A DNA stretch of 62,600 nt, filler included, from Hausera hauseri (Eukaryota): NCBI GenBank assembly GCA_046269625.1. It is 11 parts of 11 records of this genome, joined end to end, with 100 filler letters (N's around TTAATTAATTAA, not from the genome) between each part and the next. Parts side by side here need not be neighbours in the genome. Positions count along the whole stretch, not along the records: positions 21,531 to 26,853 come from JBJURY010279729.1; 10 more parts are not named here. One strand, given 5' to 3'. Position numbers and translations under genes: made by a program. The notes under the pieces are model-generated. The model was given only the letters and a program-made list of their open reading frames with translations, had not been told where the DNA came from and made no database searches. Of the stretch, positions 10,298-42,568 are shown one piece after another. Within the stretch, counting starts at the first letter, position 1, and each line of letters begins with the position of its first letter.

Positions 10298-10616
10298 TTT
10301 AAATGAATTCAGTGTAATTTTCCTTTTTGTCCCAATTCAATATCCCACCGAGAGAGTGCTAAACGTTTGACCAAAGCATATCAAAACATAAGATCGATCT
10401 ATTGAGTGTTATTATGTAAGCCTTCAAGTTTTGCTTATTGTTATGATCTTCAACAAAGTGACAGTGATATAAGCATAGCTTAGCAACGAGCTCATATTAG
10501 CACCAACACAGACAATATGGGCGTTTTATGACCCAGCAGCCTATGTGCATCTGTCTCATTCTCTAACCCCCACGATTACCAACACGATTTAAAAATTGTG
10601 TCATTCTTACTGCACG

Positions 10617-12115
10617 ATGGATACCAAGCGCAAGTCACTGACGACTGATGTAAGGTTGAAAATGCATGAAGTTGTCGACGATAACAGTAAGAAAGCAGCA
10701 GGACTCAAAAAGGAACTGGAATACATTACTGAAGAGTTTGGAATAAAGCAATGCACCCTTTCTGCCATCGTGAAAGGGCGAGAAGCGATTGAATCCACAG
10801 CTTTTTCTGGCTGTTTTTCCTCTACGGCAAAAAAATTCCGCGCAACAGACAAGTTCATTGAAGTTCACAACGCTCTCCTCCAATGGTTTAAGACGTGCCG
10901 CACTTCCAAAATAGCCATTAATGACGAGTGGCTCAAGACCGAAGCCCAGTCGTTTCTATCTCATCTTCGAAGTGGCGAGACATCAGAGGGAGATTCGGCA
11001 ATCTCCATGTCGTGGATCCAAATATAGAAACACAGCTATAACATCACATTGAAATGGATGTGTGGTGAAAGTTGCATGGATGAATTCTACTATTTTTGAA
11101 GAGCACATTCGAAGGATTGATCGCCAACAGAAAGATCCTTCTCATTGTTTTCAACTGCTCTGCCCATCCCAAACTCGATTCGCTTCGATCTGTTATCCTT
11201 ATGTTTCTTCCTTCTAACACCACTTCCAAGACGCAACCAATAGATCGTGGAATTATCTGGTCACTGAAGATGCATTATTACAAGCAGTTGATGACTAAGC
11301 TGCGCATTGCTTATGATGCCAGACAGCCCTTCCAGCCAGACCTTACGAGAGCATTACATTGGCTGAAAACATCATGAAATCACGTTCAAATCGAAACAAT
11401 CGTCAATTGTTCCCGTTCTGCGGGCTTTTGTGATGACTCCGTTTCTCTTCCTCCGATGTAATGGTTTCTTATACGATTCTGCCAGCGTGGGAAACATTTT
11501 TTAGCAGCTGTGTGCTGCGTTCTCATTGCCAGATACAGTGAGCACAGGGCTGTTCACATCGATCGACGATGAAATTTTCACCGTGGAAACTCCGAGTGAA
11601 GCTGCCATCATCGATTCTCTGATGCCACTAACTGGTGAGACCATCGTAAGTGATCATTCTGATGATAACAGTACCTGTGATGATGATGATAAATATATTC
11701 CGTCACACGCTGAGACTCTTCAAATGCCACATCAAATTCGCCTCTATCTTTTGAAGCTTTTTTCTTCTGCGGATGACTTTTGTCATTTAGACAATTTTCA
11801 ATTTTCTGTTACTAATGCAGCATTTAGTAGCAAAACACAAACGATTCTTGATAAATTTTTACCACGCGACTGATGACCTTTCTGTACTTAATGTTGTATT
11901 GTGTCTGTTGTCCTCTAAACTCTACAAAGAAAATGTGTTGATTGTCACTTCAGTTACTGTTAAGCTTGAATTGTATGAATCGATTATAACGATGGGAACA
12001 AGTCAGTACAGCTGTATAAAGTGTGCAATTTTCAAAAAATAGGTAATAATAAAATCCGTTTATAATAAAATTTTTTCTCGGGAAAAAGGCAATTTATTAT
12101 ATATGGACGTTAGTG
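10617..12115 (+). mobile_element. Tigger/pogo (CENP-B-like) DNA transposon, transposase pseudogene with internal deletion
   Basis: psq/CENP-B HTH (KRKSLT..; EEFGIKQCTLSAIVK; LLQWF), AWMNS, KILLIVFNCSAHP, FLPSNTTSKTQPIDRGII; candidate 3' TIR ending ...TTAGTG followed by TA. Confidence 0.85.
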
Positions 12116-17436: not shown

Positions 17437-18289
17437 GCTAGGAACTTCTACATCAAATGTTAAAGATGTAGGAATAAAAATCTTTACTCGATAACTATCA
17501 GATCCGATATTCACTATAACTTTTACTAATAGAATGTGATAAGAAAATTTTTTTATGAATGTAGTGTAATGTAATAATTGTGTTGTTGTTTCGAATTCTC
17601 AGTTAGTTTATATACTGATTTTCACTTGTAAATCATTTCTGAAATCAATTTCATTATTCTGTCTAATGGATTTCTTATAATTCAGTATATCCATTAAACG
17701 TACATTGACTGCAATTCATTAATTGATTTTGTAAAATCGTCCATATATCATTAATTGATTTTGTGAAATCCAGCCATATGTTAGTCCATTACATATATTG
17801 AAGCCATATGTCAATAATGGACTTTGTAACCAAATTACTTAGTGAATGTGTAATAATGTTAATCTTCAATTGATTTCAACGAATTGTCTATATTTTGAAA
17901 AAATCATTAATGGCTTCACAATTAATTTCTCTAATAATTCATTAATTTCTCTAATAATTACCATAATTTTGTTAAATTCTTTGTTTTTTACAGATTTTAA
18001 TTATTTAAAATAGCAGTGAAATAGCCGTTCTTTGTCATTTCGATATCTGGTTAAAAATCATTGTACAAAAACAGTTATTCTTAAAGACACCCATCAAAAG
18101 GGGTTTAACAAAAGAAATAAAGGAACAAAAGAAAACAAAATAATTTATTTACTGTTATTTCGAATTAAAGTTAATGTCACAATTGTTTCAAATCAAAGTT
18201 AATGTCAAAAAGTTATCAAATCGAATCGAAGACCATGTCGGCAATTTTGTATGTTAGTTTATCCTTAGTCGTTAGTCGATCCTAACAAT

Positions 18290-20400
18290 ATGTTCGTATA
18301 CCTGGATGATGTCATAATAGCATCACAAAATTTCGAACAACACCTAAAGGACTTACAAGAACTGTTTGACAGATGCACAGTTATGGGATTGAAAATAAAT
18401 ATAAAGAAATGTCATTTTGCACTAAAACAAGTAAACTTCCTCGGATTCAAAGTAAATGACCAAGGAATAACACCACAAACAGTCATTTTGGATAAAATCA
18501 AAGACTTCCCTATACCAAAATCTCTTAAAGGATTAAGACAATTCCTAGGCATTTGTAACTATTACCGAAAATTTATTAGAAACTTTTCCATGATTGCACT
18601 TCCATTATATAAGCTATTAGAAAAAGATATAAAAATGATTTGGACTGATGAATGTCAAAAATCGTTTGAAGAACTTAAAACAAAACTCCTAAACACTCCA
18701 ATTCTTAGTTATCCAGACATGAGTAAACCCTTTTTCTTAGCTACAGATGCATCAAATACAGGCATAGGAGCAGTGCTATCTCAAACAGGACAAGATGGCA
18801 AAGAACATCCAATTAGTTATGCCAGTCGTAAATTACGGAAAAACGAAAGAAACTATGCAACGATTGAAAAAGAATTGCTAGCAATTGTATATGCTATGAG
18901 CATTTATCACCCTTATTTAAGCGAGACGAAAACTATCAAAATTTACACTGACCATCGACCTCTACAGTGGTTGAAAAATCACAAAAATCCTAATTCACGC
19001 CTTTTGAAGTGGGCTTTATTATTACAACCATATAGCTTAGATTTCCAATATAAACCTGGAACAAGAAATGCAAATGCCGACTACCTGTCACGATTATATG
19101 AAGATGAAGAAGAAACAGGAATAGTCGCAGCAATATGGAGCCAAGAAACTCAGACCAATAGAATACAAGAAACACAAAAATATGATCCAGAGATTCAAGC
19201 CATCATAGAATATGATTTAACACAAATATTGCCTACTGATCCAATGTTAGCAAAACACATTGTAAAATTTTCTGACGCATGAAATAATAAATGGAATTCT
19301 ATGGTATCATTATAGAGATCGAATATTATTAATTTTACCAAAAGTAAACAGAGCGACAGTCCTACGACAATACCATGATGGCGTATTAGGGGGACATGCT
19401 TCAGCCAAGAAAACATGTGGGAAAATAATGAGAAAGTACTTTTGGTCGACTATTAAGAGAGACGTAGAAAATTGGTGCCAAAGCTGTACAATGTGTGCTA
19501 CGAGGAAAAATACAGGGTCAAAAACGAAAGTTTTAATGAAACTAATACGCAGTGATCCTCCAGCGCCAATGGAATTCACTGCAATGGACTTATTAGGAAA
19601 ATTTCCTATTTCAGCAAAAGGAAATAAATATATCCTAGTTTTTGTAGACTATTTTACGAGGTGGCCCATTGCGATACCAATTCCCAACAAAAAGGCTACC
19701 ACTATAGCCAAAGTATTCGTAGAAGAAATCGTATTTGTATATGGAGTGCCTTCGAAACTTTTAACCGATTTAGAACCGAATTTTACTGGTGAAGTCGTAC
19801 AATCTATATGTGAAATTTTCGACATTAAAAATACAAACTACTCCATATAGGCCTCAAACCGATGGAGTTGTCGAAAGATTTAATGGTAATTTAGCAAACA
19901 TGCAATCAACCGTCGTTAATACTAGACAAGATGATTGGGATGAATTCATAAAGCCATGCTTATTTGCTGCCCGAAAAACTATACACCCAGCAACAATGGA
20001 AACACCATTTTAAATTTGCCAGTTGATTTGGAATTTGATACTAAACCAACATCCCAATTATTACACACAGACTTATTTAAACAACAAATAATAGAAAGAT
20101 TAACGGAAGTATGGAAATCAACAGCCAAACAGACACGAAATTACCAAGATGAGTATAAAGAAAGATATGATAAAAAGTTAACCACATAACTTTAAAAATG
20201 GTGATATGGTAATGCTATACACACCATTCGCTAAGAAAGGTAAGTCGCCCAAGTTGGATCGATCTAATAAAGGACCATTCCTAATAGAAAATCTGATGAG
20301 GCAAATCTTTATCTACGAAGGAGAAAAGGAAAATCATAAGAAATATTTAAAGTACATGCCAATCTATGTAAGACTGCTGCAACAACGTCTCATCTAAGAA
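18290..20400 (+). mobile_element. Ty3/Gypsy pol (5'-truncated RT, RNase H, integrase), decayed
   Basis: YLDD; TDAS..GIGAVL, ELLAIV, TDHRPL, NANADYLSR; HHCC finger; DLLG..VDYFTRW, TD..NFT, QTDGVVERFN; KGPF. Confidence 0.95.
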
Positions 20401-20454
20401 ATAATAATGAATATGACATCGGTAAAACAAATTTCGTATATCATTCTTTTTTTA

Positions 20455-21430
20455 AATGGTTAAAATACTTCGTTACCTTATTTATAATGGTATGCTTAAC
20501 CCAAGTAATGAAAGCAAAAACTATATCTAAAATGGATGGACAGGACACACAAGATATATATAATACTAAAAATAAACTCCATAGAGTTTTTTGAAAACAT
20601 TCACAAACAACATATGGACAGAAGATACCTCTATCACTATATACAAATATTGGATTTTGATCAAACCAATAGCTGCTGGAAATTCAAAATAAAAAAGTGG
20701 ACAAAGGGAGAGAAATAGTAATAAAACGGATAAATTCAAAAGGACAAGATGATGACCCCTATCAATATTGTGAATTTAGTCACTATATACACCACAGATT
20801 AGATGTTGTAAAGTGAAAAATGGTGAAAATAAAATTTTAGTCTATATCGCAAAAAAGGAAACGAATGGAAATATAACTTCAAATGGAGAATATAAAATAT
20901 AAGTTCCACCTAGAAATTTAACTACTACGGCAACCACGATAATCATAACGGCTAGTACTGCCCGTACCACAATTAAAACAACCATATTTAAGACTACGAC
21001 AGAGAAAATCCCAGAATTATAGAATAATTTGAACATAAAATCTTTTGATACTTCTATTGTATTCGGTCTGAAAAAAATCGATACTTTTATAAAGTAACAT
21101 TCGACTGCTTTCAAGCAGAAAATCGAATTGACAAAGGATATCTAACATTCGAATATCCAATTGCCCCATGTGTGTCATTGAATCCAAACGAAGATTACCT
21201 AGTAATATTAAAAGAAATAAATGAAAGCGAGCGAATAATCTACCGGCGAGTGATGCGAGTGCGAACTGCGAAATCAAAATTGCATAGTAAAATTAAAACA
21301 TCATTAAAAAGAACAATAAACAAATCCCCATCATAACCCCTAAACCTTCGAGGTTAACCATTTTGGTTTCGTCACTAGTGGCAATGGCTGTAGGTGTTCT
21401 GGTAGCAATAATTATATTATGTTGCTGTAA
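20455..21430 (+). pseudogene. Extra retroelement ORF: signal peptide - Thr-rich stalk - FN3-like domain - transmembrane helix, in frame with the integrase C-terminus
   Basis: ..KVHANLCK..WLKYFVTLFIMVCLTQVMKA in one frame; TTTATTIITASTARTTIKTT; SLNPNEDYLVILKEIN (FN3 LxPxxxY); LTILVSSLVAMAVGVLVAIILLCC. Confidence 0.6.
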
Positions 21431-21530: not shown

Positions 21531-23690
21531 CGAAACCAATGATAGATAACCAACTCAAAGAATGGATTGAACTGTTAGACAGATTAGTGAGTCTAACGAA
21601 ATATCGTTTATGGAAGTATTCAAAATGTGAGCCAATATTAAAACAACAGTTAAAAAAAATACTCCGTAACCTAGATGCTTATAAAATAGAAGCAAACCTT
21701 CGAGTTGAATTTAACGCGTTATTGAAACTAAGATTTATGAGCAAAGATCAGGAAATAAAACTCAGAGGAATTGTATACCACGATCGAAGAAATGGAATTA
21801 TTGGCGAAACAGGAAAAGATCTCCTTATCGATGAGGCTAAAAGGTGTCCGCCTAGAAGGAGTAGGACACTTGACAACAAGGCCCATAGATAAAATATCCA
21901 TATGTGATCTATCGACGTTGGATATTTGCCCAAATCATCGCCTCACACCCGACGAAGCTAGATTCGTAAAGAGACTAATCGAAGAAATAGATCCAGATTC
22001 AAAAACTCTGAAAGAAATGCGCGAAATAATATCACTACTATCGACAATGGCAGAAATAGATGACGATAAGACGCGACAATTGACAATTCAAGTTAAAGAT
22101 ATAAAAAAATTTCGACTTCGTACCAAGCAAAGAGCTATGAAACTAGACTAATTAGGCAAAGAATTGGAGGTTTATAAGGATAAATAATATCACGCAATCA
22201 GATTTAGCGAATAAAAGAGAATTTGTACAAAGATGGTTAACGGATGTAACGACCGAATTAACAAATTATGAAAGAAAAGGACTGTTTCCTGCAGACAAAC
22301 TAGGTCCGACATTAAAAACAATACAATTGGCATGTGGAAGCGGATCAGAATTTAGGACAAACTTAATGAGGTACAGTCAAGATTAAACGAGATCCGCGAA
22401 AATGTACAAAGTACGTCCACGATATTACTAGATTATGGATTACCAAACGTCACAGACGACTCAGGATGGGATGCTTATTTGGACGATGTGTACAACCAAA
22501 ACCCAAAAACACCCATCCAACTTCAACAAAAGGATATTTTTCCAACAGACCGGCGATTTGATAGAGATGCTCTTGGATCCCGCACGGGCCGAAAGAGAAT
22601 TAATTGAGCAGATTAACGTCAACATAACAGAGAGCAAATTGAGACAATTGATCCCTACATTAACCAAACTATCGAGCGAAAACACCGTTTATAGCTTGGT
22701 ACCCAGATTATTAATAAAGAAATACGCTGATTTCTTGAAAGCTAAACCAAGAAACGACGATTAAGGTAAAAAATATCAACTGAATGGATGGAAGAGAGAG
22801 AAATTGAATGTACAACGATAACATTGGTTAGAGAAGTAAAACAATGGATAGTACAAAGCAGTGGGAAAGATGAAGTAAATTATTGGTTATACTTCCGAGG
22901 TAGGATACTGGATATACCTGAGTTACTAGTAGATGTAGGAATTATTCCGAAGGAATCAAATCGAATAGTGGCTATAATTACAGACGAACAGATAAAAGAC
23001 GAGGCTGTAAGGAAAGTGAGAGACGAACATTGCGTAGGACGTATTATGGGAATCCGAGACCCTGTCATGTATTTTGAATACCTCCAAAGTGAGGAAGATA
23101 AGAAACAATACAATAACAATCTAGTACCGAGTAGCGAAGCAATACCAACTGCGCCAAAACAGAAACGACCAGTTGAAAGGCCGAGAAAAATAAGAGATGA
23201 TATTGACCAAAGTGCAGCCCTGATACGAGAACTAAGGCAACTATCCATGCCCGCGATTAACTCCGATAGTAAAGAATTGAACGAGTTGCTGAGAAACATC
23301 AAAATAGTGAACTATTCGGGACCAAGAAACAAGATGTTGGACGAAAAAGAAAAAGCAATATATAATGTTGCAAGAATAATGAGAACATTTCGGTTTAAAA
23401 TGAACAAAAGCAACTTACCTGACAAAGTTTTAATCGATAAAATTATGGTAGAGAATACTAAGGAAGAATTAAGGAAAGTAATATTGCACTTGACAATCAA
23501 GACAAATCCACTAAAACAGAATGAATTCAATAGAACCATTGAATTGATCAGAAAAGCTGCTAGAAAGATACCTGGAGATAAATTGGTCCAAGTTATTTGA
23601 CGACGAAGATAGAAACAGGCCTACCACTAGAATTGAAGGTGTGGTAAGAAATTTAATACCAACTAACTCAGAGCGAGATAGTGAATCAAG
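21531..23690 (+). pseudogene. Long frameshifted charged/helical ORF containing an internal ubiquitin-like domain (~22765-22980); N-terminal part of a retroelement polyprotein
   Basis: Overlapping + frames with no intergenic gap; VKQWIVQSSG-x7-LYFRGRIL-x5-LVDVGI..KES aligns without gaps to the ubiquitin core VKAKIQDKEG-x7-LIFAGKQL-x5-LSDYNI. Confidence 0.65.
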
Positions 23691-25906
23691 TTGGATGATT
23701 AAACTAGTAAAACTTATGATATTAATAAGACAACTCGGTGAAATCACAGTATATGACTGCGACAAGTTTAAGGTCGGACAAAGATATTCCTTGATGGATC
23801 TGGAGTATTGTGAGGATGCCAGACCCCCCAAATTAGTAACCATTGAGAAAGTATTTCTTGTATCAGCAACGCGAACTAATCGCAATAGACGGAATAGAGT
23901 GCATGTTACGACGATCACGAAGCATTTTCTACTGTGGAAATATGCACGGGCATTAGTCAATCGTAAAACCAGCAACAACACTAATACCTATGGATTTAGA
24001 CAGAAAACAATGCAAACAAACCAAGGAAACAGGAAGATTGAGATGGGATGGGATGGAGTTAAAAGCCCAACCAGGAAAGATAATTCGAGTGTATAAAATA
24101 GCAATTGGGAAACTAGACATGCACACCGGATACTGTAAAGGTGAGTACGATACAGGAAAAGAGAAGCAGAAATATTAGTAGTTGATTTCTGAGACAGATG
24201 AGGAACCAAAAGGTGATGCTCCATTGTGTTACAAAGACACAGAAAATCAGAAGTGCCATACCCAGGATGGTGCCTGAACTTTCCGGAATTCGATAGTTAT
24301 TTGGACTCCACCACCTATAAATGATTGTAACTTTATCAAAATAAAAGAAAAACTTTAACGAAACTACGGGAAAAAGATATGTAGACACAACCGACAATAA
24401 TGCCAGATCAAGGAAGAACGTCGCTGAACAGTCGACACCCACGACACTGATCTCCGAAGATCACGGATTAAAGTTCATTAAGAATCAAATGCTTTCTCGA
24501 TGCAATGTAGTAATGTACGCCACTAATTACGAAGCATTCTTCGTAGCATAAACTGAAATAACTACTTTTGCTCTTGAAACACAAAATGTAAGAATAGAAG
24601 ATTATTTGAAGAATAGAAATGATTACTTTTATTTCAAAGGACAGATGATCGCAAACGACTGTAAATTGGATGTGGAAGTCATGAGGACCAAACAAGCCTT
24701 AATATACTCAAATCCAGAACTAGCATCACCCGTAATTCCAATGAAAGAAGGCATTTTCGGAAGAGTTACCGGAGAAGTCATGTTGACCTACGAATGCGAA
24801 AAACGAGATGTATCCCTAAACGTGGAAGAAAAACGTTGTATTCAAGAATGGCCAGTCATATATCACAACGTACCTCGATTGGTTATGTCACTTACTAGAG
24901 TCTTGCTAGAAAACGCAACACAACCAACTGTTTTGAAAGAATGCAAAGCAGGTTTTGGCGAACCCATGTTTAAAAGAAGTGAGACAGATTAGATAATTCT
25001 GCCTAATGGAGGAATAATACCCACACTGGGTAAATTAACTGCAACAAATTTGTTAAAAGGCATAACGGATAAGTTCGCTGACACCGCAAGTAAAGGGATT
25101 TACAGATCAAAGGAGATTGAAGCTTTATACAATTTTTAGCCTTCCCTCGACAGCATACACATGAGCTAAATAGAGCCATGTCATCGGTGATGGACGACAC
25201 TCGCTATCAAGCAAAATGGGAATCCCTACTTGGCGTCAATCATTATCAAATAGTCACTACAGAAATACTATATAAAATCTGAGAAAGATTTCTAATTTTC
25301 GGACAAGCTGCATCAGGATTCTTAGCCATCTATTTCTTGGTACAACTCGTAAAGGCTATAATTCAATCTATCATAAATAGCTATGAAATATTTACTCTAA
25401 CCGGATTTTCATGCAAAATTCTGACCGCAATCATAACACCGTTTGGAAAACTTTTGAAGGCCTACGAAGAAAACATGGAAAAGCGACGTGGAGAGACACG
25501 TTGGTTATTATAATCGGCAACGAAAGAGAAAACCTATATTTTTATAGGACAAAGAAATACAAAATTTCGAAAAAACGATTCGGATGATGATGAGCCTAAG
25601 GGAAGAGACGCAGTCTCCAAGATAAGCAATCGTAAGACGATTAGGCCGCCCTTGCCAATGTTGCCTCCTTCGGCACCGTAACAATACGGCGTGTTACGGA
25701 ACATGTACCGAATTAAGGAAAAATCTAATTTATGCCGCCACTCGGTGGATGACCACAGAGTAATATACTTTCCAAGGATTTCACGGAATATAGAAACTAA
25801 ATCATTAATTTGGGATAATCCGCGAACGCAGACCTTCCATAACCAAAACAACCGAGAACCGCTAATCAATACGCCGGACCGAGACAACAAAAACAGTATG
25901 AAGTAG
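23690..25906 (+). pseudogene. Chuvirus-like (class III) envelope glycoprotein with cytoplasmic tail, decayed
   Basis: Hydrophobic leader then VYDC..YSLMDLEYC; C.LRRSRSIFYCG; QCKQTKETG; GYCKGEY; GEVMLTYEC..V..CIQEWPV..TRVL..C..PMF; GIY..FLAFP; TM FLIFGQAASGFLAIYFLVQLVK..GFSCKILTA. Confidence 0.8.
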
Positions 25907-26853
25907 ACAAACGTATACAAATGTATTTGACAGTATATAGACAAATTAACAAATGTTCAGTATCCTACCTTATTTTTCCCACCGTGTAAATAAAATAAAT
26001 CGATAATTGTATAGTATCATCCTAACTTTCTAACACAAATATTTTCATTTCTGATCCCTATTGAATCACACTTCTGAGAATCACTGAAGCGAGGAAACGA
26101 TTCCGTGTGAGGGCAGTTAATTAATTCGCCCCATTCGAGATCACACGACAAGAAGGTAATCAATAGCCACAAGGATAGCCCCTCCACCAACACCGGGGCA
26201 AGGGGTGACGCATTGCGCGTTAATGTGCGTTACATTTCCGAATTACATGATCAATGATTTTAGTTTATTTCCCCCGACCGTCCTCTCACGGCCGTAACTG
26301 AAATTCCCATCACGTTTCTGTTATGATTTTGTTTCTATAAGGGCAGTCTGGCTCAGAAAATGAAGCTGTGTACTGTATGTTGTTCTCAAACACTTTGGTT
26401 GTAGCTCCCTGTCAGTAAATCTGAAACATATTTTTATAGTCACACTTCTCTCATAAGTAAGTGTGGATTTAAAATAAAAAACCTCCCAACATAACCTGTT
26501 ACTCCTCAAATGAGATATATTAATTATACTTGCCCCTTCAACTATCAAAGGCAAGGAGGATGGGCCGGAGAAATGGCCTCTAATAACCTACACTTGCATA
26601 TTTATCTACTTCATTAACTCGGATACGGCAGACAGCAAAGCTCTGAATAATCTGAGAAGCTGTGAGGTGCATCAGTTTCTCCTTATATGATTCATGCAAT
26701 ATTGAGTAAAAAAAGACATTATTTTTGACATATCCTAATATTATCCAGAAGATTCAGTTTCCAATACCAGTGTGAGAGAATTTAATATAAATGGATCTGA
26801 AACGGATTATTTAGACTTAAATGATACTTTACTATGTGTAAAAATCAAAGTGA

Positions 26854-26953: not shown

Positions 26954-29900
26954 TGTGCAGGACACGGTACGAGGAATTTTACAATTTCCATAAACAGCAC
27001 TTGATTTCCTTCGTTAAGTCGAAAAAACAAATATTCAGTAACAGTATGCCAATATCGTCTTTTGTGTCAAAGGAAAACCAAATGTGCAGTTCATATATGT
27101 ATTGCACATGTAAAATACATAACCCCGAGAATTGCCACAATAACATGAGGGGCTATTATGGTCACAAATTTAATAGGATCTTCTATTATATTTTCCCAGG
27201 ATGTGAGACTGTATGTGATGGAGAATACATACAGTTCTATGAAGATCACAAGCATCATTTGAGTAACGTCTCATCAAAGTCCAAGAAGATCATATTTAAT
27301 GAGCATAGGCCAGTTGCACTGTCCGCAGTACAGCCTGCATACGTCGAAATTCAGAATTAAAACGCCAATCAGGCCCATCAGGTCCATCAGATGCCTCAGG
27401 CGTAGGGGCTCCGTCAAAAAGCCATAGGCAGCAGACAGTTGATGCTGCTGCATTAAAGAAAAAAGTCCGCTAATCTGTCATTGATGCAGCTGGGCAAACA
27501 TCCATCAAGGATTTTCTGAAATATGCAAAGTAAGAAAAAGAGCGGATCCTCTAGGACAATATGACTAAGCTCAAGGCCCTTAAAGTTAATATGAAAGTCG
27601 AGGCCACATACGCCAATGTCGATGCTGAAGAATCAAATAGGGCCTTCAAGACCAAAAATAAGCCCATATTGGAGAACACAAATATAGCTGAATGGCTACA
27701 TGAAGAGCATACGAAGCTGATCCGTAAAGCCGATGAGAGCCAGGATAAGAAGAGTGGATGGGCTCTGACAACCATCAAGAGACTGATTATATATGTACAC
27801 AGATAATCCCCCATGCTAGGTAGTTCATTTGTACAGCTTTCGGAATGGAATCGGCAGAAAAGTGCTTGCATTAATGTCCATAATAATGACAACAAGTGCT
27901 TTATGTATGCCATTATATGTAGAGTCGTACGGGATCAAAAACATGCAGCAGATGGAATTTGGCTACATAATGATCTTCAACATAACTACGACTTTCAGTG
28001 TATCACATTCCCTCCATCCCTAGATGAAATCAAGAAGTTCAGCCGCATCAACAACATGTCCATCAATATCTTTGGATTCGATGAGGAGGACAAATTCTAT
28101 CCCTTGCAAATATGTGATGCTGAAATGGAAGATCATAGGGATCTGCTCCTACTATATGATGGTGATAAGAAACATTATGTTTGGATCAGGAATTTTAAGC
28201 GTCTAGTCAGATCCCAAATAAAAAAGCATGAACACGAAATCTAAATATGAAAATATGTTTATTGCATTTCAGCGGTAAGTTAGCTGTGGAGAAGCTGAAT
28301 AAGAATAATATGTACTGTAACAGCCATTATTTCGTAAGGCCTGAATTTCCCAAAGAGGACTATATTGAATTTAAGGAATTCGAGAAGAAGATCAAGGTCC
28401 CAATTATCGTTTATTGCAACTTCGAGGACATTCTCAGGCCAGTTCACGCATGCAGTCCCAGTCCTCAATATAGCAGTACAACGGCATACTAATATCATGG
28501 ATTTTCATCGTATTTTATGTATGCCAAAGGATTGGGCAGTAAACCATATTTATTCAGGGGTCCAGATGCAGCAGCACATTTCATGAAGAGACTTGAAGAC
28601 ATGCCTCATAAGCACGAAAAGATGCTACAACATCATAAGGACGACATGAACATGTCTTGGATACAATAAGAAGAATGGTGCAAGGCAACATCATGCTACT
28701 CTGCGACAAGTCCTTCACCAAGGAAAATTGGAAAGTCAAGGATCACTGCCATTTTACAGGTGCGTATCGGGGTGCAGCATGTAACAACTGCAATCTTCGC
28801 TGCAAAACATGCAATTATGTGCCTGTAGTATTCCATTATCTCAGCGGCTATGACAGCCACTTCATACTCCAAGAATTAGGCAACATTGATGGCAATATAA
28901 ATGTGATCCCCAATAGTGAGGAGAAATATATCAATTTCACTAAGCATGTTGGTAAAATCCAACTTTGCTTCATCGATAGTTTCAGATTCATGTCGTCTTC
29001 ATTGGACAGTTTAGTGAAGAACCTGCCTGCAGAGAAATTCAGGGAAACGAAGAGATTCTTTCCGGATACCTTTGACCTGGTTTAAAGGAAAGCAGTGTTT
29101 CCCTATGACTATATAACATCATGGGAAACACTGAATGAGTCCTCTTACCGCCCAAGGATGGATTTTACAGCCAGTTGTCGGACAGAAATATCAATGATGA
29201 GGACTACCAACATGCTCAGAACGTCTGGCATGCATTCCAATACAGAACGTTAGGAGAATATAGCGATATATGTATATCTTCCAAACCGATCTGATGCTGC
29301 TGACAAATGTATTTGAAAGTTTCAGGGATGTCACAGTAAACAGTCATACTTTGGATCGGGTTCATTTCTTCACGGCTCCACGGATTAACTGGGCAACAAT
29401 GCTGCACTATACCGGTATCAGGCTTCAAGTCATTTAGGATTACAACCTGATCCTTATGATCGAAAGAGGCATTAGAAGGGGAACATGCCAAGCAATTCAC
29501 CGGTATAGCGAGACCAACAACAAGTATATGGCTCAATACGACTCAACAAAGGTGTCATCATATATATCCTACCTGGATGCTAACAGTTTGCATGGATGGG
29601 CAATGAGCGGCCCATTGCCATATGATAATTTCGAGTGGGTTGAGCACCCTGATGACATCCCTATCATGGACATGGACCCAGCTGGAGATACGGGCTACAT
29701 ACTGGAGGTGGATATGGAATATCCGGCTTCCATCCACACAAGGCATCAACAGCTGCCTTTCCTCCCTGAAAACAGGCCACCGCCCAATGGAAAGCAGTGA
29801 AAGCTGCTCTGTAATTTGGGTAATAGGGAGAGGTATGTAGTCCACTACATCAATCTCCAGCAGGCAGTTAAACTTGGACTCCGCATTACTAAGGTCCATA

Positions 29901-30766
29901 GAGCCCTACAGTTCAGCCAGTCCATATGGCTGCAGTCCTACATTGATTTAAATACCAAGCTGCGGACAAATGCCAAGAACGATTTCGAGAAAGATTAATT
30001 TAAGATGTATAATTACAGCGTTTTTGGCAAGACGATGGAGAATATCCGCAATAAGATCAACATCGAGATAGTATGTGACTCGAAGCGGGCAAAGAAGCTT
30101 ATTACCAAGCCTAACTTCCACAGCAGCACCATATATGAGGAGAACTTGGTAGGCATCCATGTGATGAAAACGGCATTTGTATTCAACAAACCGATATATG
30201 TGGGTATGGCAATACTGGACCTATCAAAAACCCTAATGTACCACTTCCATTAAGATTCAATGGTACCAACATTCAAATTCATATAGCAGATGTATATGGA
30301 TACTGATAGTTTTATCTATCATATCCATACTGAGGACATGTATAAAGATTTTGCCTAATTGGCTCAGCACATAGATACCTTAGATTATTCTAAGGATCAT
30401 CCAAATTATTCAACCACCAACAAGAAAGTCCTCGGGAAATTCAAAGACGAGGTGAATGGGAAGATCGTCACCCGTTTCGTGCCATTGCGATCAAAAATGT
30501 ATGCTCTGGACGTATGTGGCCAAATCAAAAAGAGAGCAAAGGGCATTTAAAGAATTACACTGGCCAGCAAGATCCGTTTTGCGGACTAAGTGAGAGTTCT
30601 GCAGGAACAGACTCACATAATATCGAAAATGCGAAGGATCCAATCTAGAGACTATAACATCCACACAGCAGAACTGCACAAGAAGAACCTAGATTGGATG
30701 GACTACAAACTGCAGATCCTGAGCGATGGAGTCCACACACTACCTCATGGACTTGTGGCACTGTAA
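26954..30766 (+). pseudogene. Maverick/Polinton pPolB, near full length, decayed
   Basis: N-terminal Cys/His repeat; KVKDHCHFTGAYRGAACNNCN; HYLSGYDSH; YLDANSLHGWAM; KMYNYSVFGKTMEN; YMDTDS; KKVLGKFKDE; terminal TLPHG. Confidence 0.95.
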
Positions 30767-30999
30767 ATATGTACATATTGTTAGTCTTTGTTATTTTTGC
30801 TTGTAATAAATCTTGTATAAAAATATCGTGTTGTCTTATTGATCAAGTAACGTGGATATAGGATAAGGCCAAGTAAATCTAAGTAACTACTATATAGGTT
30901 AAGACCAAGTAAAGATCAATAAAATCAATAAAATTGAAATTTGAATAAAAAGTCAATACAGTGCGACATTTACTTGCATTAATCTTTCATTATTTCAAA

Positions 31000-31275
31000 A
31001 TGCTAAAAACTTGCCCGATTTGTTGGAAGCAAATGCCGGGTAAAACAATGCGAATGGCGACATGTGATGCACATACCTTCTGTATAAGATGTATGCAGAA
31101 ATGGTTAAGCAGCAAAATGTCATGCCAGCTATGCAGAACAAAGTGCGAGTATGTGGTAGTCCAGGATGCTAAAGACCACTGCCTGTATGTAAAATGGGTA
31201 GGGCTCCTGATAAAACCCATACATGAATTCTTACCTGACAGTGACAGTGACAGTGATAGTACGATTATTATGTGA
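31000..31275 (+). CDS. Small C3HC4 RING-finger protein (putative E3 ubiquitin ligase) with acidic DS tail
   Basis: CPIC...CDAHTFCIRC..W...CQLCR; intact 91-aa ORF from the ATG at 31000. Confidence 0.8.
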   Translation: MLKTCPICWKQMPGKTMRMATCDAHTFCIRCMQKWLSSKMSCQLCRTKCEYVVVQDAKDHCLYVKWVGLLIKPIHEFLPDSDSDSDSTIIM

Positions 31276-31347
31276 ATGTTATTCAATACATGTTTTTTCA
31301 TTATATGCCTTATGCATTATAAAAACCAACTAGTTTTCATAACACAT

Positions 31348-31670
31348 TTATTTCATAACAATATAATTTTGACATAACGCTAAACACTTTTCATAAGCGC
31401 AGTGTGAACCATGTTCACGATAAATACATGTAATGTTCTTTTGTATAGCCTACAATTTACCACATTCATATGTACGTATTCGCAATTCTGGAATTATGAT
31501 ATTAAATATTATCTTCTTTCGTCCATCAGCATGATTTTTGACATTGAACATGGATTAATTTATATCACATATATTCCCAATATCTCGCATAAGGCAGTCT
31601 CTGCAAAACTAGGTACTATATTCCTCCCAAGTCAGTTTCCGATGATGTTTTGTCAAATAAGCATTTGTTG
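31348..31670 (-). pseudogene. C-terminal part of a Maverick DEDD-like nuclease/Zn protein
   Basis: TNAYLTKHHRKLTW...CIYREHGSHCAYEKC; homologous to 37651-38168. Confidence 0.65.
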
Positions 31671-31770: not shown

Positions 31771-31822
31771 GTTAGGTTATTTTATCATACGGATCAATGG
31801 ATGTTTCCAATTCCCTTAGTTC

Positions 31823-33130
31823 TCAATCTGTAGTTTTATGGCACTTAGAATAACAATGTTTAGCAACTAATTGAATAATCGCAATTAACATAATGAGAAC
31901 AAACGTTGATAGTTTGACTATCGATACTATCGGTATAGTGGTTAATCCCATTGGGGCTTGTGTGATGATTGGAGTTGTGACTTCGTCGTCTGTGTTTTCG
32001 TATACATGCGATTCTTCACGAATTTCGTTTAAAGTACGCAATGTAAGTGTTTGGTTTTGTCTATCTTCTGCATATACTTGTATTATATAATCGGATTGGG
32101 GTTTTAACAATTAGCCTTCCGTCTGATAAGTGTTTTTAAGTAATATTACAATTTGGTTATTATACGTTGTTCGGCAGCTTATATGTATGTCGTATTTGAG
32201 CTTTTCTTCTACGAAGAACACAATTTAAATCGATGCGCCCAATATTTAATAGGTGCACTTTCTTATTCTCTTTTAGGCACACTGCTTGATGTAATTGGTT
32301 TGGTAATGGTACTGACTCGGGTAGTCGGCTTTTTGGTTGTTGTTTCTATTGAAATCTTCCATGTTATATTCTTTGGGTAATAAGTTAGCAAATGTTTGTT
32401 TGGATTATTCGGTCGCACTTCATATAAATCAAATTTTATTTTGAATTCTTGGTTTATTTTCGGAGTTTTCCGTTTATTTCTTCAAAAACAATACTGATTT
32501 CTTGATTAAAAGTTAATTCCGTTCGAGCATCTACTTGGATACATCGTCCATCTTTGTTTATTGAGATTCCTTTAAAATTCTCTTCTAATCACCTTACGTT
32601 TTGGTCGGTGGATTGAATTATTTCGTTGGGCTTTACTTCAAATCGTTTGATCCAAGCAGGAATATCCAACTGAAGTGGTGGATTTACTTCAATATAGACT
32701 TCTGCTGAGTCTGGTAAGTACAGGCGATAAGTAAGGTTGTGAGTATATCCAAAGTCTATATCGCAGCACTGGGTATAATCTCCGGGTTCAAAAACACACT
32801 TTTTTGCATTCTTCACTGCTGTGTCGTATAGGACAATTTGAAATCACTCGAAATCGTGATGTGGTCTCCGAGTCTTAAGTGCGACGCACATGGCGTCTGG
32901 CGAAAAGTAATGAACTGTCATTAACTGTAACAATCTAGTGTCTTGTTGTTTTGGATCTCTTTGTCTGTTGTTTCCCCTCCGCTATGGTATTTTTCGCCTT
33001 TAATCCTCTTTTCAGTATTCCGTATATGTCTCCTAGTGTAGATTCATCGTCCCACAATTGAGCTTGTATTCTCAGAATAGGAGAATCCATTAATGTTAGT
33101 GCTAAAACTATACGAACGTATGATATCGGT
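31823..33130 (-). pseudogene. Extra retroelement ORF: signal peptide - Cys-containing ectodomain - Thr-rich - FN3-like - transmembrane, in frame with integrase
   Basis: ORF 32935-33303 runs from the integrase tail (..RYNLR) directly into YVRIVLALTLMDSPILRIQA; LKPQSDYIIQVYAE; TM LSTFVLIMLIAIIQLVA. Confidence 0.65.
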
Positions 33131-33149
33131 CTAGTAATTATTGAAGAAG

Positions 33150-36100
33150 TTTTTATCTCGCGTTGGCGTAAATTATAACGTTTATTGGGCCGTATCTTCG
33201 TCTTAACAACTCTTTGTACAGACACGACTTCTTCCTTTCCATTCTTGTTAATATACACCGTAGTTGGCGTAAATCTGTTAACTCCGTACGGTTTTCTGCC
33301 CATACCGGTTAGTTTTAACGACTTACCTTTCTTGGCTACCGGATAATGTACATAAACCCAATCTCTGGTTCCAAATCGTGTGGCCTTGCCTTTTTATCGT
33401 ATTGCTTTTTAAACTGTTCTTAATATTCTTTTGATAACTCTATAGCGATTTCCCAACACTTTTGTAGTCGCGTCTGTAATACTTCTGCGAAGTTTTGTTC
33501 CAAATCTTAGGGATTACCGTGTATGGCGTCATACCTAAATTTGTGGGTAATACAGCTTTTCGTCCATACATTATGAAGAAAAGCTTAAATCGTGTTGCCG
33601 GATATGGTGTGGTATTGATTGCAAACTGGGTTCCTTCTAAAAATTTGTCCCAATCTTTTTGGTCCTTAGCTACTACTGTTGATAGTATGCGTATTACAGT
33701 TGCATTCATTTGTTCAACCATTCCATTACATTGGGTATGGTATGCGGTGGTAGTTAACCGCTCAATCTCAAACATTTTAGTAATCTTCCCAAACATTTCG
33801 GTAGTAAAATTTCTTTCTCGGTTTGTCAATATTTGATCTGGAGGTCCATATCTACAAATGATTCTTCTTACTACAGCCTCTGCTAGGGTTTTTGCCTTTT
33901 GGTCAGTCAAAGCTACTAATTCGATAAAATGAGTTAGCCGATCTATACAAGTCAAGATATACGTATTATTTCTGAGACGTAGGTAACGGTCCCACAATGT
34001 CCATTGACATGGCTTGCATAGCCTATCTGGTACGGCAATTGGTTTTAGCTCTACCATGTAGTTCTTGTTCTTTTATGTTTAGTTGCGCATACGTCACAAG
34101 CATTTACCCAATTGTTTACATTAATGTAAATACTGGGCCAAAATTATTTATTCAGTATTCTTTCCAGCGTCTTCTTCTACGACATGTGAACTGCTAAATC
34201 GGGATCGTGTTCTGCCATTAGAACCTCGGTGCGTAACCCTTTTGGGATGATTATCAGTTTTATTCCGTTTCGTTCGTAATACAAAATATCTTTACTGCTT
34301 TTGTCATACAGGACGCAGTATTTGTGTCCGTGCCTGTCTAAATGTTTCCTTAGTTGTCGTCCTCTTGGTACGACGTTCTTTTTTGTAAATTCTATAATCT
34401 GCTGAATAATTTTATCCTTTCTTTGTTCGGTTGAAATTTTAATCGCTTTATCCATCGTTAAGACGCGTTGACGATCTTTTATTTCTTCAAGCTGACTTTT
34501 TTTTAGTACAGTAATTGCACTTGTTTTGGTGTTTAATCTTGATATTGCATCGACATCTTCATGTTTGTTTCCTAGTTTATACTGAAATTCAATATTATAC
34601 CTGGAAATTTCTTCAATCCATCTGTTAAGTATACATGTCGGATTGTTTGCTCATCCTTTTAGGGTCGTGACGGCTTTGCGATCAGTAACAATTATGATTT
34701 CCTGTCCTTACACGTAAAAATTAAAATGTCGCAGCGCTTCTTTAACGGCTATAGTTTCTAATTCGGTGACGGAATAATTTTTTTCGGCCTTCAAGGAACG
34801 TCCTCCATAAGGAATTAGGTGTTATAATATTTCATTTTCTCTTTCTTGTGCTAATTCATACCCAATGCCTTCTTTAATGGCATCTGTCTTGATTATAAAG
34901 AGTAAGTTAAAGTCCGGGTATCGTAAAACGGGTTCGCTTGTTAGTATCTTCTTTATTTCGTCGTAATCTTTCTGTTCAACATCGGTCCATTTCCATTTAA
35001 TTCCTTTTTTAAGTAGACGATTTAAGGGTGCATTTATTTTCGAGTTGTCGGGCACATAAGTGGCATAATATCCCAAGAGACCTAGCCAATGTCTTAACTC
35101 TTTTTGATTTTGTGGCTCCATGCAATCTGATATTTTGTTCAACAATGATTTATCTTGTTTTGATCCTCCTTCTCCAACTATATGGCCAAGGTAGGACACT
35201 GCGTTTTGAACCCATTTACATTTCTTCGGATTTAATTTCAATCCGGCCTGTTGCAGTCGCATCAACGTGTGTTCAATATCTTTTAAGTGTTCATCTTCTA
35301 TCCTTGACGCTATCATTACGTCATCTAAGTATGCAAAAGCATAGTCTTCTCCTATTAACATTTTATTCATCATCCTTGTAAAGCTGGCTGATCCGGTAGT
35401 AATACCCAATGGCGTTACATTAAATTCATAGACGCCATCATGTGTCTTGAACGCTGTTTTATGTCGATCTTCGTCCTCGATTTCTATTTTCCAATATCCG
35501 GATTGTAAATCCAGAGTGGTAAACCATTTTGCTCCTGAGTTTGTCTAGAGTCTCTTTTACTGATGGCAATAGAAAAGAATCTTTTATCATAAGTTTATTT
35601 AATACTCTGTAGTCAATACATAATCGGTGTTTTGTAGTACCTTTCTTTTTGACCATAAGGATTGGTGAATACAAAGATCTATAGCTGGGCCTGATTATGT
35701 CGGCCTCAAGCATCCGTTCGACCTCGTTTGTTATCTCGAGTCTCAGTGAATTAGGTGGGGGATACCATTTCGGCATCTTCTGGTCTTCAAGATCTATTTC
35801 TTCATTTGAACAAGGCTTTTTCTTAAGCGTGATAGTCAGTTTTAATGCTTTTGCTCTGCCGATATCTTCGTCGTCTTTAGCAATAATTGATTTATAGCGA
35901 CATAATAATTCATAGAATCGGCAGTAAGATTCGGGGGGAAACTTAGTTTCGACATGAGGTGGGAATTCGGCATACTTGTAAGACTTTTCAATAGTTATAA
36001 ACGACACTAAGTATTTCCTAAAGTAGTATAAGCATAAAGCTTGATGGGAGGAGGTGCATTATTTGCTATTCTAATTGGTACACGACCGGAGTGTACTCGT

Positions 36101-36600
36101 GTTAATATGTTACTAAGTATTATATTTGGATTTAATATCTCCTTTAGTTTGAAATATACCAGTTGATCGTCATCTTGTTGAATTTGCGCGTAAATTATTA
36201 TCTCTCTTCTCGGCGGAATATTTTCATCTACTGGTGTCCACACTTCTCCAAATTTCCTATCTTTAGTGTTTCTAATGCCTTTATTTTTCCGATTTGCATT
36301 AATTTTCCTGTCTGCAAGTCAATTGCTATATTTAGTAGTCTTTTCAGTAGATCGCACCCTAAAACTACGTCGTCAGTTAATTGCTACATAACTACAAATT
36401 CATGACGGAAAAACTGTCCAACTATTTGAATTTCTGGGTTCCATTTCAACATCGGTTTCGACATTTGGCCAAAAGCTCCTGTACTTCCTGGATCCTTTGT
36501 AGATGGTGGGTATAATTGTCTTCTCAGCGTTTGAAGTATTGAATCATTTTTAATGTAAGACATCTCAGAATTTGTATCGACTAATGCATAAACTTCCCAG
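33150..36600 (-). mobile_element. Ty3/Gypsy pol: protease, RT, RNase H, integrase (decayed)
   Basis: VYALVDTNS...VVLGCDLL; RLCIDYRVLN; YEFNVTPLG; AYLDD; KTDA..GIG; IDRLTHF, QCNGMVEQMN. Confidence 0.95.
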
Positions 36601-36799
36601 ACTTAAGGATGATTTTGGCAAAGGGTTCTCCTTTTATTAGTGTTCAAAACAGTTTGATGCAACTTTTGTGCGTTTAGTCGTCGATATTTATGTCCGTTGA
36701 TTGGAATTTCCGGGCAGGATACTATATTTTCCGATAACAGTCTCAGCTCTCAGTTTGGATATAATTCAGTCTTTTCGATGGTCAATTCTTCTGTTTTAC

Positions 36800-37411
36800 G
36801 ATTACTAATTAATGGTTCTCAACTGTTAGTATGTGATTCTATATTCCGGAAGAATTTTACCTTAGATTTTCCCAGACAGGCGATCTATTCTCTAAATTCG
36901 GAGGTTCTTTCTGGGAATACAATATTCTGGGGTCATACATGGGCTGTCGATAACACATTTTACGTAGGATTCCATAACGTTTAGTTTCTTCGTAGGAGTA
37001 TTCTAAAATATTTGGTCATTTATAGATTTCTATTTGATATGAGCACATTGATCTTTTGTCACAGTCTTCAAAGACTGAGGCCGTAGGGGGTAGTATAGAC
37101 AGTGGTGCTTTAATGACCGAATACGTATTATGTCTGTCTGTTCTTGGAAAAACTTCACCTCTATTAAACTCGTCATCATCTGAATTATTTCTTCGCGTAT
37201 TCGGTTTTGTGAATTTCCGCTTGTACAGAAACATGTTTTCTTTTTCGTTTACGATTATAGTAACCGACATGACGTTCTACATCTGATTTCCATTTGTTCT
37301 CTTCGTATGTTTTCAAAAACTTTCCAAAAAGCGTTATAATTGCAGTTAATATTTTGCACGAAAATCCGGTCAATGTAAGTATTTTATAGCGACTTATTAC
37401 TGCTTGAATGA
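36800..37411 (-). pseudogene. C-terminal part of a chuvirus-like glycoprotein, homologous to ~25360-25870
   Basis: TLTGFSCKILTAIITLFGKFLKTYEENKWKSDVERHVGYYNRKRKRK matches TLTGFSCKILTAIITPFGKLLKAYEEN..KSDVERHVGYYNRQRKRK. Confidence 0.85.
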
Positions 37412-37511: not shown

Positions 37512-37601
37512 GTCACATACAATGATATTATGCATCAGAATCCATTGACATTTCTATGTGGGAATTATTGTGTGGACTGGCTTAGACGTCAATGTACATA
37601 A
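37512..37601 (+). CDS. C-terminus of a Maverick adenain-like cysteine protease (partial)
   Basis: VTYNDIMHQNPLTFLCGNYCVDWL matches YN....Q......CG.YC around the catalytic Cys. Confidence 0.65.
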   Translation, partial: VTYNDIMHQNPLTFLCGNYCVDWLRRQCT

Positions 37602-37650
37602 AATTGTTATAAACGTTGTTATTGTTGTGTTAATAAATGTTATTATTGAA

Positions 37651-38168
37651 ATAATATCTGTCTTCTTTATTGACTTGGAGGGATTTGTGGATAATAATAG
37701 CGGATACATCATAAAGAAGCTATGTATAATGTCAGTGGATAATATGTTTCATCCACCACACTATGTATTTGTGTAAGTGAATTTTAGTACATGCAATATA
37801 TGTGCTATTTTTATGCCTTCAATACATTGTTGTACAAACAAGGCTCAAGCAACAAATGCTTATTTGATACACCATCATCACAAACTGACTTTGGAGGAAT
37901 ATAATACCCTGTTTTGTAAAGATTGCCTTGTGCGAGATATTGGAAATATATGTTATATAAATGAATCCATATTCTATGTCAGAGATCACGCTGATGGACG
38001 GAAGAAGAAGTTATTTAATAGCACATTTTCAGAATTGCGAATATGTGCATATGAATGTAACAAAGTGGTAACCATTCCAAAGAAATATGTATTTATCGTG
38101 AACGTGGTTCACACTGTGCTTATAAAAAGTTTTTAGCGTTATGTCAAAGTTATACTGTGACTAAATAA
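37651..38168 (+). pseudogene. Maverick DEDD-like nuclease/Zn protein
   Basis: FIDLEGF..YIIKKLCI; TNAYLIHHHHKL; CIYRERGSHCAYKK; stop and frameshift. Confidence 0.7.
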
Positions 38169-38319
38169 ATGTGTTATAAAATTAGTTGTTGTTATTCTAT
38201 ATAGTAGTTACTTAGTTTTTCTTGGCCTTATCCTATATCCTACATTACTTTATCAAGAAGGCAACACGATATTTCTATACAACATTTATTAAACAGTGAA
38301 GAACGCTGAGTAACAATAT

Positions 38320-41300: not shown

Positions 41301-41696
41301 CAATCTCTTGATGGTTTTTAGAGTCCATCCGCTTTTCTTATCCTGACTCTCACCGGCTTCACGGATCAGCTTTGCATGCTCTTCATGCAGTCATTCTACT
41401 ATATTAGTGGATTTAAAAATGGGTCTTTTGTTGGTCTTGAAGGCCCCTTTGGACCATTCACCATCAATATTGACGTATGTGGCATACAGTTTCATATTGA
41501 CTTTAAGGGCTTTGAGTTCAGTCATATTGTCCTGGACAATTCCCTTTGTTTCTTCCTTTGTGTACTCCAGGAACTCCTTGATGGTTGTTTGACCAGTTGC
41601 ATCAATGACATATTTGCAACATTTCCTCTTTAATGCTGCAGCATCAACTGGCCGCTGTCTTTGACTCTTTGATGGAGCCGGTACGCCTGATGCGCC
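38320..41696 (-). pseudogene. Maverick/Polinton pPolB, decayed; close relative of 26954-30766
   Basis: KVKDHCHFTGAYRGAACNNCN; HNLSGYDSH; KGVFPYD; KLYNNSVFGQTMEN; YIDTDS; terminal TLLHGH. Confidence 0.95.
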
Positions 41697-42487: not shown

Positions 42488-42568
42488 TACTTATCATGTA
42501 CAATATCACTTTTTTGTTTATTACACAAACAAAACTACTAACTATTATTATTATTATTATCACAGTCA

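Follow-up and report, generated by a model that had tools for sequence, protein, structure and literature searches.

What kind of element does a broken, virus-like glycoprotein gene in an animal genome belong to, and was its glycoprotein newly captured from a virus? The window (i.e., the whole 62,600-nucleotide stretch that was analyzed) joins 11 separate records with N-padded spacers between them; the glycoprotein lies on record F5 (positions 21531 to 26853), and a pol region together with a homologous glycoprotein tail lies on record F7 (31771 to 37411). The preliminary description had proposed that a chuvirus-like class III glycoprotein was captured independently by a Ty3/Gypsy element. Our analysis leads to a different account of its origin, to which we assign a probability of about 90%, namely, that F5 carries the pseudogenized, 3'-truncated env region of a GAG-ENV-POL type Ty3/Gypsy LTR retrotransposon in an animal genome.

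The F5 glycoprotein gene is real but broken

All of the motifs listed in the preliminary description were recovered in the order given, across frameshifts, on the plus strand in three frames (23752 to 25298), together with the transmembrane (TM) stretch. More specifically, YDC lies at 23752, YCG at 23930, C...TG at 24011, G.C.G.Y at 24128, GEV....C..V at 24771, C..E.PV at 24837, GIY at 25095, FP near 25136, and FG..ASG at 25298. The gene falls into four plus-strand pieces. Piece 1 (23695 to 23862), comprising a weakly hydrophobic signal-like stretch and YDC..SL.D...C, is 26 to 44% identical to relatives by tblastn and matches the relatives' profile at E 1.4e-9; this piece alone (56 aa) gave no Pfam match, and its frame breaks near 23850. 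Piece 2 (23852 to 24358; PF24664 E 6.5e-10) corresponds to the N-terminal ectodomain with YCG and G.C.G.Y, and holds four internal stops and a frame break near 24350 to 24400. Piece 3 (24351 to 25136; PF24664 E 1.3e-9) covers the long central helix and the following beta region with GEV...C, C..E.PV, and GIY, with two internal stops and a frame break near 25130. Finally, piece 4 (25130 to 25510; PF24664 E 3.8e-14; one internal stop) contains the membrane-proximal region with FG..ASG, a TM helix from ~25319, and the start of the cytosolic tail. With three frame breaks and seven stops in 604 positions (~600 codons), the gene is real but broken, and the protein can no longer be made.

Hydropathy shows a layout of signal peptide, ectodomain, and C-terminal TM (Kyte-Doolittle 2.03 for the stretch from 25319; a weak 1.37 for the signal-like stretch at 23695), and relatives have the same layout. 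What looks like a hydrophobic start near 23695 corresponds in these relatives to a signal peptide inside a longer protein, the alignment with which continues in frame as far upstream as 23605. Of the extent originally proposed (23690 to 25906), the conserved part already ends near 25460 to 25510. The remainder (25511 to 25906, plus strand) is a degenerate, poorly conserved post-TM linker, in which similarity to F7 fades by ~25820. No protease follows ENV in F5 (best score, -4.6 bits), and the F5 copy is cut short on its 3' side.

The encoded protein is a chuvirus-type class III fusogen

Three of the four frame pieces matched PF24664 (Monjiviricetes_fusion) above the 27-bit cut-off and in collinear order, i.e., 38 bits (profile positions 61 to 156), 37.1 bits (331 to 424), and 52 bits (518 to 609). 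Consistently, a profile of 11 relatives recovered all four ENV pieces, with E values between 1.4e-9 and 1.1e-50, and had no other match in the window at E ≤ 0.01. The agreement between motifs and profiles is far beyond chance. NCBIfam gave no match for five F5 pieces, among 10 proteins scanned.

At the structural level, the predicted fold of relative P0099 (pLDDT 81) matched herpesvirus gB (best E 1.1e-13, with all listed rows being gB) as well as the chuvirus-type G of Tacheng tick virus 4 (E 1.4e-42), with sequence identity amounting to 17 to 22% for the best-matching viral G models and 9 to 13% for gB. For the model of ENV piece 3 (pLDDT 81), the top matches in BFVD, a collection of viral proteins only, were chu-like G proteins (E 2.1e-8), and VIA-align yielded a weak alignment with gB (Z 4.4, rmsd 15.6, 179 aligned) and no chain at Z 5. 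A profile of alignment A1 returned only gB from PDB sequences (E 0.009), which by itself is suggestive. Together, the profile search of the frame pieces and the structure comparison, both proposed as checks beforehand, show that the F5 gene encodes a chuvirus-type, class III (gB/chuvirus-G-like) fusion glycoprotein, as had been claimed. The window glycoprotein and its relative thus have profile and fold in common with Jingchuvirales G (PF24664) and herpesvirus gB. Unlike these proteins, the ENV is embedded in a retroelement polyprotein, with no viral N or L nearby (no match among 45 pieces scanned).

Upstream of ENV, a 276-aa open reading frame (ORF; 22770 to 23600, plus strand) probably encodes the region that precedes ENV in the same polyprotein. 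Its start (22770 to 22985) may hold a ubiquitin-like domain, for which matches were weak and below cut-off (Pfam ubiquitin, E 0.053; ISG15 in 9 of 11 PDB matches, best E 0.064). The preceding broken coding-like sequence (21531 to 22769, plus strand) contains no detectable gag. A candidate BH2-like stretch within it (22368 to 22484; 6 bits and E 0.004 with a two-sequence profile in a small search) found no support in PDB or Pfam, which gave unrelated weak matches, and pairwise similarity of the F5 upstream region to the pre-ENV regions of 11 relatives (best E 0.13 to 0.15) was rejected. MATH, BIR, and ankyrin domains had no match in the F5 pieces scanned.

Env precedes a Gypsy-type pol on a second record

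F5 carries neither pol nor detectable gag in profile scans. Record F7 carries, on the minus strand, the 3' tail of a related ENV (36865 to 37411), cut by the record end. Positions 25361 to 25533 of F5 are 76% identical to 37409 to 37235 of F7 over 175 nt (E 1.6e-29); the tails are 70% identical over 294 nt, followed by a weak 87-nt match at 25736 to 25820. Mismatches by codon position (9/2/15 and 3/2/10) are mostly at the third. Judged from these alignments, the F7 tail is from a sister family of the F5 glycoprotein and not the same copy.

Directly downstream of the ENV tail, on the same strand, lies a degenerate aspartic protease (PR; 36285 to 36599), detected with the relatives' profile (E 5.6e-8), by Pfam gag-asp_proteas (E 0.0079), and by a tblastn match to P0094. 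With the tail at 37411 to 36865 and PR from 36599, env stands before pol. The minus strand continues with a PR-RT spacer (36016 to 36228) that is homologous to that of ENV-fused relatives (relatives' profile, E 2e-6), and with a Ty3/Gypsy-type reverse transcriptase (RT)-RNase H (RH)-integrase (IN) region interrupted by stops and frame breaks (33455 to 35932; PF00078, PF17919, PF17917, PF17921, and PF00665), the best PDB match of which is Ty3 Gag-Pol (E 3.8e-34). Of the 86 RT matches, 81 are annotated with PF17917 or PF17919; PF05380, PF03564, and PF18701, which we take to be Pao-type families, are listed for none of the 86. Thus, the expectation of a Gypsy-type rather than BEL/Pao partner pol was borne out in F7 and in the relatives, both of which show the PR-RT-RH-IN order with Gypsy-type domains; F5 itself does not. 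A second RT-RH-IN pol of the same clade lies on record F4 (18269 to 21430, plus strand; 5' part absent from the record). Env before pol, and the split over two records, had been missed in the preliminary description.

At no point do gag, env, and pol stand together on one record. Pfam scans found no gag in F5 or F7, both of which begin too late, and neither of these records, only ~5 kb long, has a direct-repeat (LTR) pair. The window has no tRNA genes.

Intact relatives are single Gypsy polyproteins with env before pol

When piece 3 was compared with longer proteins in a word-indexed search, 0 of 852 candidates passed; a full HMMER search then found 50 library matches to the glycoprotein, 25 of which were scanned for domains. 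PF24664 was present in all 25, a protease lay downstream in the same protein in 10 (11 with P0098, E 0.0018), RT-RNase H in 5, and integrase in 4, all with Gypsy-type profiles. Env and RT share one ORF in 5 of the 25, whereas the window copies are too broken for an in-frame fusion to be read. The nearest relatives are single polyproteins of the order (gag)-ENV-PR-RT-RH-IN with Ty3/Gypsy domains; signs of gag lie upstream of ENV in P0107, P0101, and P0113, and P0099 and P0091 have a Bcl-2-like N-terminus.

In a quick tree of 29 of the 50 matches, the window glycoprotein falls, on a long branch, inside the polyprotein-embedded clade (SH-aLRT 95), nearest P0092. Likewise, it is up to 29% identical to retroelement-embedded ENVs versus 20 to 23% to free-standing PF24664 proteins, the viral identity of which is assumed. 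Among the 26 database proteins compared, the F7 pol best matches P0092 and P0094 by BLAST. In RT-RH-IN trees of 26 rows hand-picked from 91 in the database (Gypsy-type rows only, with no BEL/Pao outgroup), the pols of F7 and F4 fall together with the five ENV-fused pols, all of them included (bootstrap 90/SH-aLRT 95; clade not starred, long branches, with the bootstrap value not settled). F7 was not resolved in an RT-RH-only FastTree of 87 rows, which included 84 of the 91 database rows (seven were dropped for coverage under 340 residues).

Since env and pol are found within a single protein in intact relatives, the link between them holds across the two records. The connection originally drawn through the tail at 36800 to 37411 is sound as homology, but the two tails lie on different records with no physical link and belong to sister families.

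Long association is favored over recent capture

The env and pol of the window fall with one and the same set of relatives, which speaks for a long history of common descent. The glycoprotein also resembles retroelement-embedded ENVs more than free-standing PF24664 proteins, so there is no sign of a recent capture from a virus. If a Gypsy element had recently and independently acquired a chuvirus glycoprotein within this host lineage, this would fit the best BFVD structural matches, which are chuvirus-type G proteins; moreover, published GAG-ENV-POL elements are not monophyletic (PMC13524379), which leaves room for several captures or swaps. However, BFVD offers viral proteins alone, and the nearest proteins by sequence are ENVs already inside Gypsy polyproteins, with env and pol sharing relatives; we consider such a capture improbable. 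As a new event, the independent capture proposed earlier is not supported, given that Gypsy elements with such a glycoprotein have been published and that the protein is nearer to retroelement ENVs.

We see even less reason to favor a solo endogenous viral element, i.e., a glycoprotein mRNA or segment of a chuvirus that was inserted alone, with Gypsy fragments nearby by chance. Many arthropod endogenous viral elements were concluded to be solo integrations, with Gypsy fragments near them in the absence of clear capture (PMC10084718), and F5 is without pol; yet the sister copy in F7 is followed, without a change of strand, by PR-RT-RH-IN, the nearest relatives are pol-fused, and viral N and L are missing from the pieces scanned. 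Least probable of all is a BEL/Pao (Anakin-like) element. The same glycoprotein family occurs in the mosquito BEL/Pao element Anakin, likewise an LTR retroelement (PMC7642597), and the PR-RT-RH-IN order is common to BEL/Pao, but the F7 pol has Ty3 as its best PDB match and Gypsy-type profiles only, and the env-like genes described for BEL/Pao elements lie downstream of pol (PMC7642597). Troyka was also considered and rejected, as no Troyka element encodes env.

Under the preferred reading of a decayed GAG-ENV-POL Gypsy element, an intact copy would be translated from one long reading frame into a polyprotein that begins with gag plus accessory domains, followed by the internal signal peptide, class III ectodomain, and TM helix and then by PR, RT, RNase H, and integrase. 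Going by this topology and the class III mode of action, the signal peptide would thread the ectodomain into the ER and the TM would bring the chain back to the cytosolic side; cleavage by signal peptidase and by the protease of the element would set the parts free; and budded particles bearing trimers of ENV would be fused by these into neighboring, probably germline, cells.

Relation to published elements

Nematode endogenous retroviruses reportedly have a continuous gag-env-pro-pol ORF. The same elements are reported to show a flipped env/pol order in a metavirus and an RNA-virus-type glycoprotein (Sacco et al., 2022). Chuvirus/gB-type env in Ty3/Gypsy, as well as the GAG-ENV-POL order, is already published (Chary and Hayashi, eLife, PMC13524379; Burro). 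PMC13524379 reports 114 Gypsy elements found with mosquito BEL/Pao glycoprotein baits and places GAG-ENV-POL elements in nematodes, bryozoans, and flatworms, with ENV_HSV in all 30 supplement rows listed for Nematoda, Bryozoa, and Platyhelminthes; its authors argue that the Gypsy/glycoprotein association is ancient. Its "errantiviruses" with HSV/gB-type ENV likewise combine a Gypsy pol with a chuvirus/gB-like ENV before pol, but are intact and often multicopy, whereas the F5 element is decayed.

In the giant planarian Gypsy element Burro/GYPSM1, env follows gag and precedes pol without a change of frame and has mononegavirus fusion protein matches; ubiquitin-like and BCL2-like accessory domains stand before env, and a dUTPase-like region between PR and RT (PMC6431247). 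The weak ubiquitin-like match in F5, the Bcl-2-like N-terminus of P0099 and P0091, and the conserved PR-RT spacer may correspond to these Burro features; the MATH, BIR, and ankyrin domains of Burro gave no match in the F5 pieces scanned.

A post-integrase membrane module

The F7 post-integrase region (31772 to 33180, minus strand) contains a weak signal-like stretch (33144; hydropathy 1.4) and a TM helix (31930; 2.7), and a possible fibronectin-III (FN3)-like piece (Pfam NDNF FN3, E 0.036, below cut-off). Records F7 and F4 both end in TM stretches (at 21360 in F4). At least two hydrophobic segments past integrase were found in 3/3 ENV-fused relatives extending there (P0092, P0094, and P0104) versus 0/66 ordinary Gypsy pols, the tails of which may simply be shorter. 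The gB-type fusogens need a receptor-binding partner, as gD/gH/gL for herpesvirus. It is conceivable, though doubtful, that this clade encodes two membrane proteins per polyprotein, i.e., a class III fusogen before PR and, after integrase, a signal peptide, FN3-like ectodomain, and TM acting as the receptor-binding partner. The post-integrase modules showed no significant mutual homology (best E 0.39 for the three relatives against F7 and F4; nothing with a two-sequence profile), FN3 had no match in P0092 or P0094, and the FN3-like reading consists of the one weak F7 match plus reading by eye.

In the literature consulted on these elements we found no description of a second, post-integrase signal-plus-TM module; in the parts of PMC13524379 consulted no such membrane module was found, and its main text does not contain the word "fibronectin." The module may be absent from many of the gB-type elements in print. 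If the two-protein reading is true, the second protein would answer the entry question left open in PMC13524379, and if the module is a conserved attachment protein, it would make the entry of gB-type retroelements into cells open to testing.

The F5 element may be seen as a decayed addition to a lineage published from 2019 to 2026, the post-integrase module of related elements being possibly the only undescribed feature. Its contribution is a divergent branch, for which the closest glycoprotein found shows 29% identity, along with two or more related pol lineages from a single animal genome; the finding would carry more weight should the host belong to none of Nematoda, Bryozoa, and Platyhelminthes. 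A receptor phosphatase gene of the host has matches of 29 to 54% identity (among the 120 of 142 matches listed) in fish, mammals, echinoderms, molluscs, a sponge, and insects, a spread over many animal groups that identifies the host as an animal and no closer.

An eroded class III glycoprotein gene

The window consists of 11 records of 4-11 kb each and is not a single locus. The records are separated by N-padded spacers of 100 nt with a 12-nt palindromic core; inference across a spacer does not amount to physical linkage. Record F5 (21531-26853) contains the glycoprotein (ENV), whereas the tail and pol that the preliminary description had taken as its link are in record F7 (31771-37411). Elsewhere in the window there are a CDT1-like gene, a receptor phosphatase, further Gypsy pols and polB elements, which identifies the DNA as animal; homologues of the phosphatase did not narrow the origin beyond that.

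The glycoprotein in F5 is real. Every motif previously listed for it is present, in the proposed order; three of its four frame pieces scored above the curated cut-off of the chuvirus-type fusion profile PF24664 at collinear profile positions, and a profile built from 11 relatives picked up all four. Structure comparison likewise returned herpesvirus gB and chuvirus-type G: the predicted fold of an intact relative, P0099 (pLDDT 81), matched gB (E 1.1e-13) and chuvirus-type G (E 1.4e-42), and that of the window's own central ENV piece (pLDDT 81) matched a chu-like G (E 2.1e-8), gB ranking first yet weak in VIA-align (Z 4.4, rmsd 15.6). With three frame breaks (near 23850, 24350-24400 and 25130) and seven stops within 604 positions, the gene is dead. 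We looked for a protease 3′ of ENV in F5 and found none, indicating that this copy is cut short; no pol was found in F5 either.

Gene order and polyprotein layout

Past the transmembrane segment (TM), F5 is similar to the beginning of F7 (76% over 175 nt; 70% over 294 nt). The mismatches fall mostly at third codon positions, as expected of sister families whose divergence took place while both still encoded protein. The ENV tail of F7 continues on the same strand into a protease (36599), then a spacer, RT, RNase H and integrase; env precedes pol. The original observation is largely upheld, with the corrections that tail and pol sit on a separate record and belong to a sister family.

The layout is read from the relatives, in which the element is a one-ORF polyprotein. 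The central ENV piece, used as query in a full HMMER search, gave 50 matches, 25 of which were domain-scanned: all 25 carried PF24664, 10 a protease downstream of ENV in the same protein, five RT-RNase H and four integrase. Signs of gag were seen 5′ of ENV in three relatives, and the ENV-fused relatives P0091, P0094, P0097, P0101 and P0107 each contained between two and four domains resembling aspartic proteases. The window glycoprotein shares 28-29% identity with its best polyprotein relatives versus 20-23% with the free-standing proteins with top PF24664 scores, and a quick tree placed it, on a long branch, inside the polyprotein clade (SH-aLRT 95).

A Gypsy partner of a published kind

As previously claimed, the partner pol is Gypsy-type: its best PDB match is Ty3, and its database matches carry Gypsy-type profiles. 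A tree built without a BEL/Pao outgroup joined it to the F4 pol and all five pols fused to ENV (bootstrap 90, SH-aLRT 95); an RT-RH-only tree did not settle its placement. The F4 pol (18269-21430, + strand), a second Gypsy pol, is 46% identical to P0092, groups with ENV-fused polyproteins and probably represents a further GAG-ENV-POL family in this genome.

Chary and Hayashi described 114 Gypsy elements with an Anakin-type glycoprotein (Anakin being defined in PMC7642597), GAG-ENV-POL elements occur in nematodes, bryozoans and flatworms, and the glycoprotein-Gypsy association is argued to be ancient (PMC13524379); in Burro, env lies in frame between gag and pol, behind ubiquitin-like and BCL2-like domains (PMC6431247). 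F5 has a weak ubiquitin-like match 5′ of ENV, and a Bcl-2-like domain immediately precedes ENV at the N-termini of P0099 and P0091. Troyka was ruled out on the available text of PMC12440569. The earlier interpretation stands for the class III glycoprotein and the Gypsy partner, but an independent new capture is not supported, as such Gypsy elements are already in print (PMC13524379). Capture may have looked open because a 2023 study, in its accessible part, found no clear Gypsy case (PMC10084718). By the tests possible, and leaving the named clade aside, the F5 element works like GAG-ENV-POL Gypsy elements and belongs with them; the window ENV is a decayed addition to an already published kind of element.

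Beyond the identity, decay and gene order observed here, and the one-ORF layout observed in relatives, a working can be proposed. An internal signal peptide would take the polyprotein across the ER membrane and the TM would make the second crossing, leaving ENV in the lumen and gag and pol in the cytosol; cleavage would release the parts, and ENV trimers on budding particles could move the element from cell to cell. The trimer and fusion steps are extrapolated from established class III biology.

A second, attachment-type envelope protein after integrase is a lead rather than a result. At least two hydrophobic segments follow integrase in all three ENV-fused relatives reaching beyond it versus 0 of 66 ordinary Gypsy pols, tail length being a confound. 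F7 and F4 both end in TM stretches, and F7 has a weak FN3 match (E 0.036). Homology among these modules in the relatives, F7 and F4 was not significant, and a limited search of partly available literature found no description of such a feature.

Other features of the window

Record F9 (41797-46800) carries a TBP-like gene (43413-44243, E 1.3e-7) and a dUTPase gene (42572-43162, E 8.3e-23); by eye, neighbouring ORFs resemble a Polinton/Maverick-type packaging ATPase (44619-45050) and integrase (45466-46509). A TBP seems out of the ordinary for an element of this type. F6 (26954-31670), F8 (37512-41696) and F11 (57835-62600) share 70-78% identity over 2.5-3.5 kb, F8 matches protein-primed polB and endonuclease VII, and F1 (1-4659) is polB-like by eye; all four appear to be Polinton-like remnants. 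In F2 (6432-7985, − strand), two adjoining ORFs contain a CDT1-like domain (E 7.2e-11 and 4.3e-15) and a third stretch resembles it by eye, making this CDT1 repeated or very divergent. F10 (46901-57734) holds an FN3-TM-phosphatase gene in pieces (53416-55700), flanked on each side by a Gypsy integrase region, the two copies sharing 83% identity over 1143 nt, and F3 holds what looks by eye like a pogo/Tigger-type DNA transposase remnant (10593-11870, + strand).
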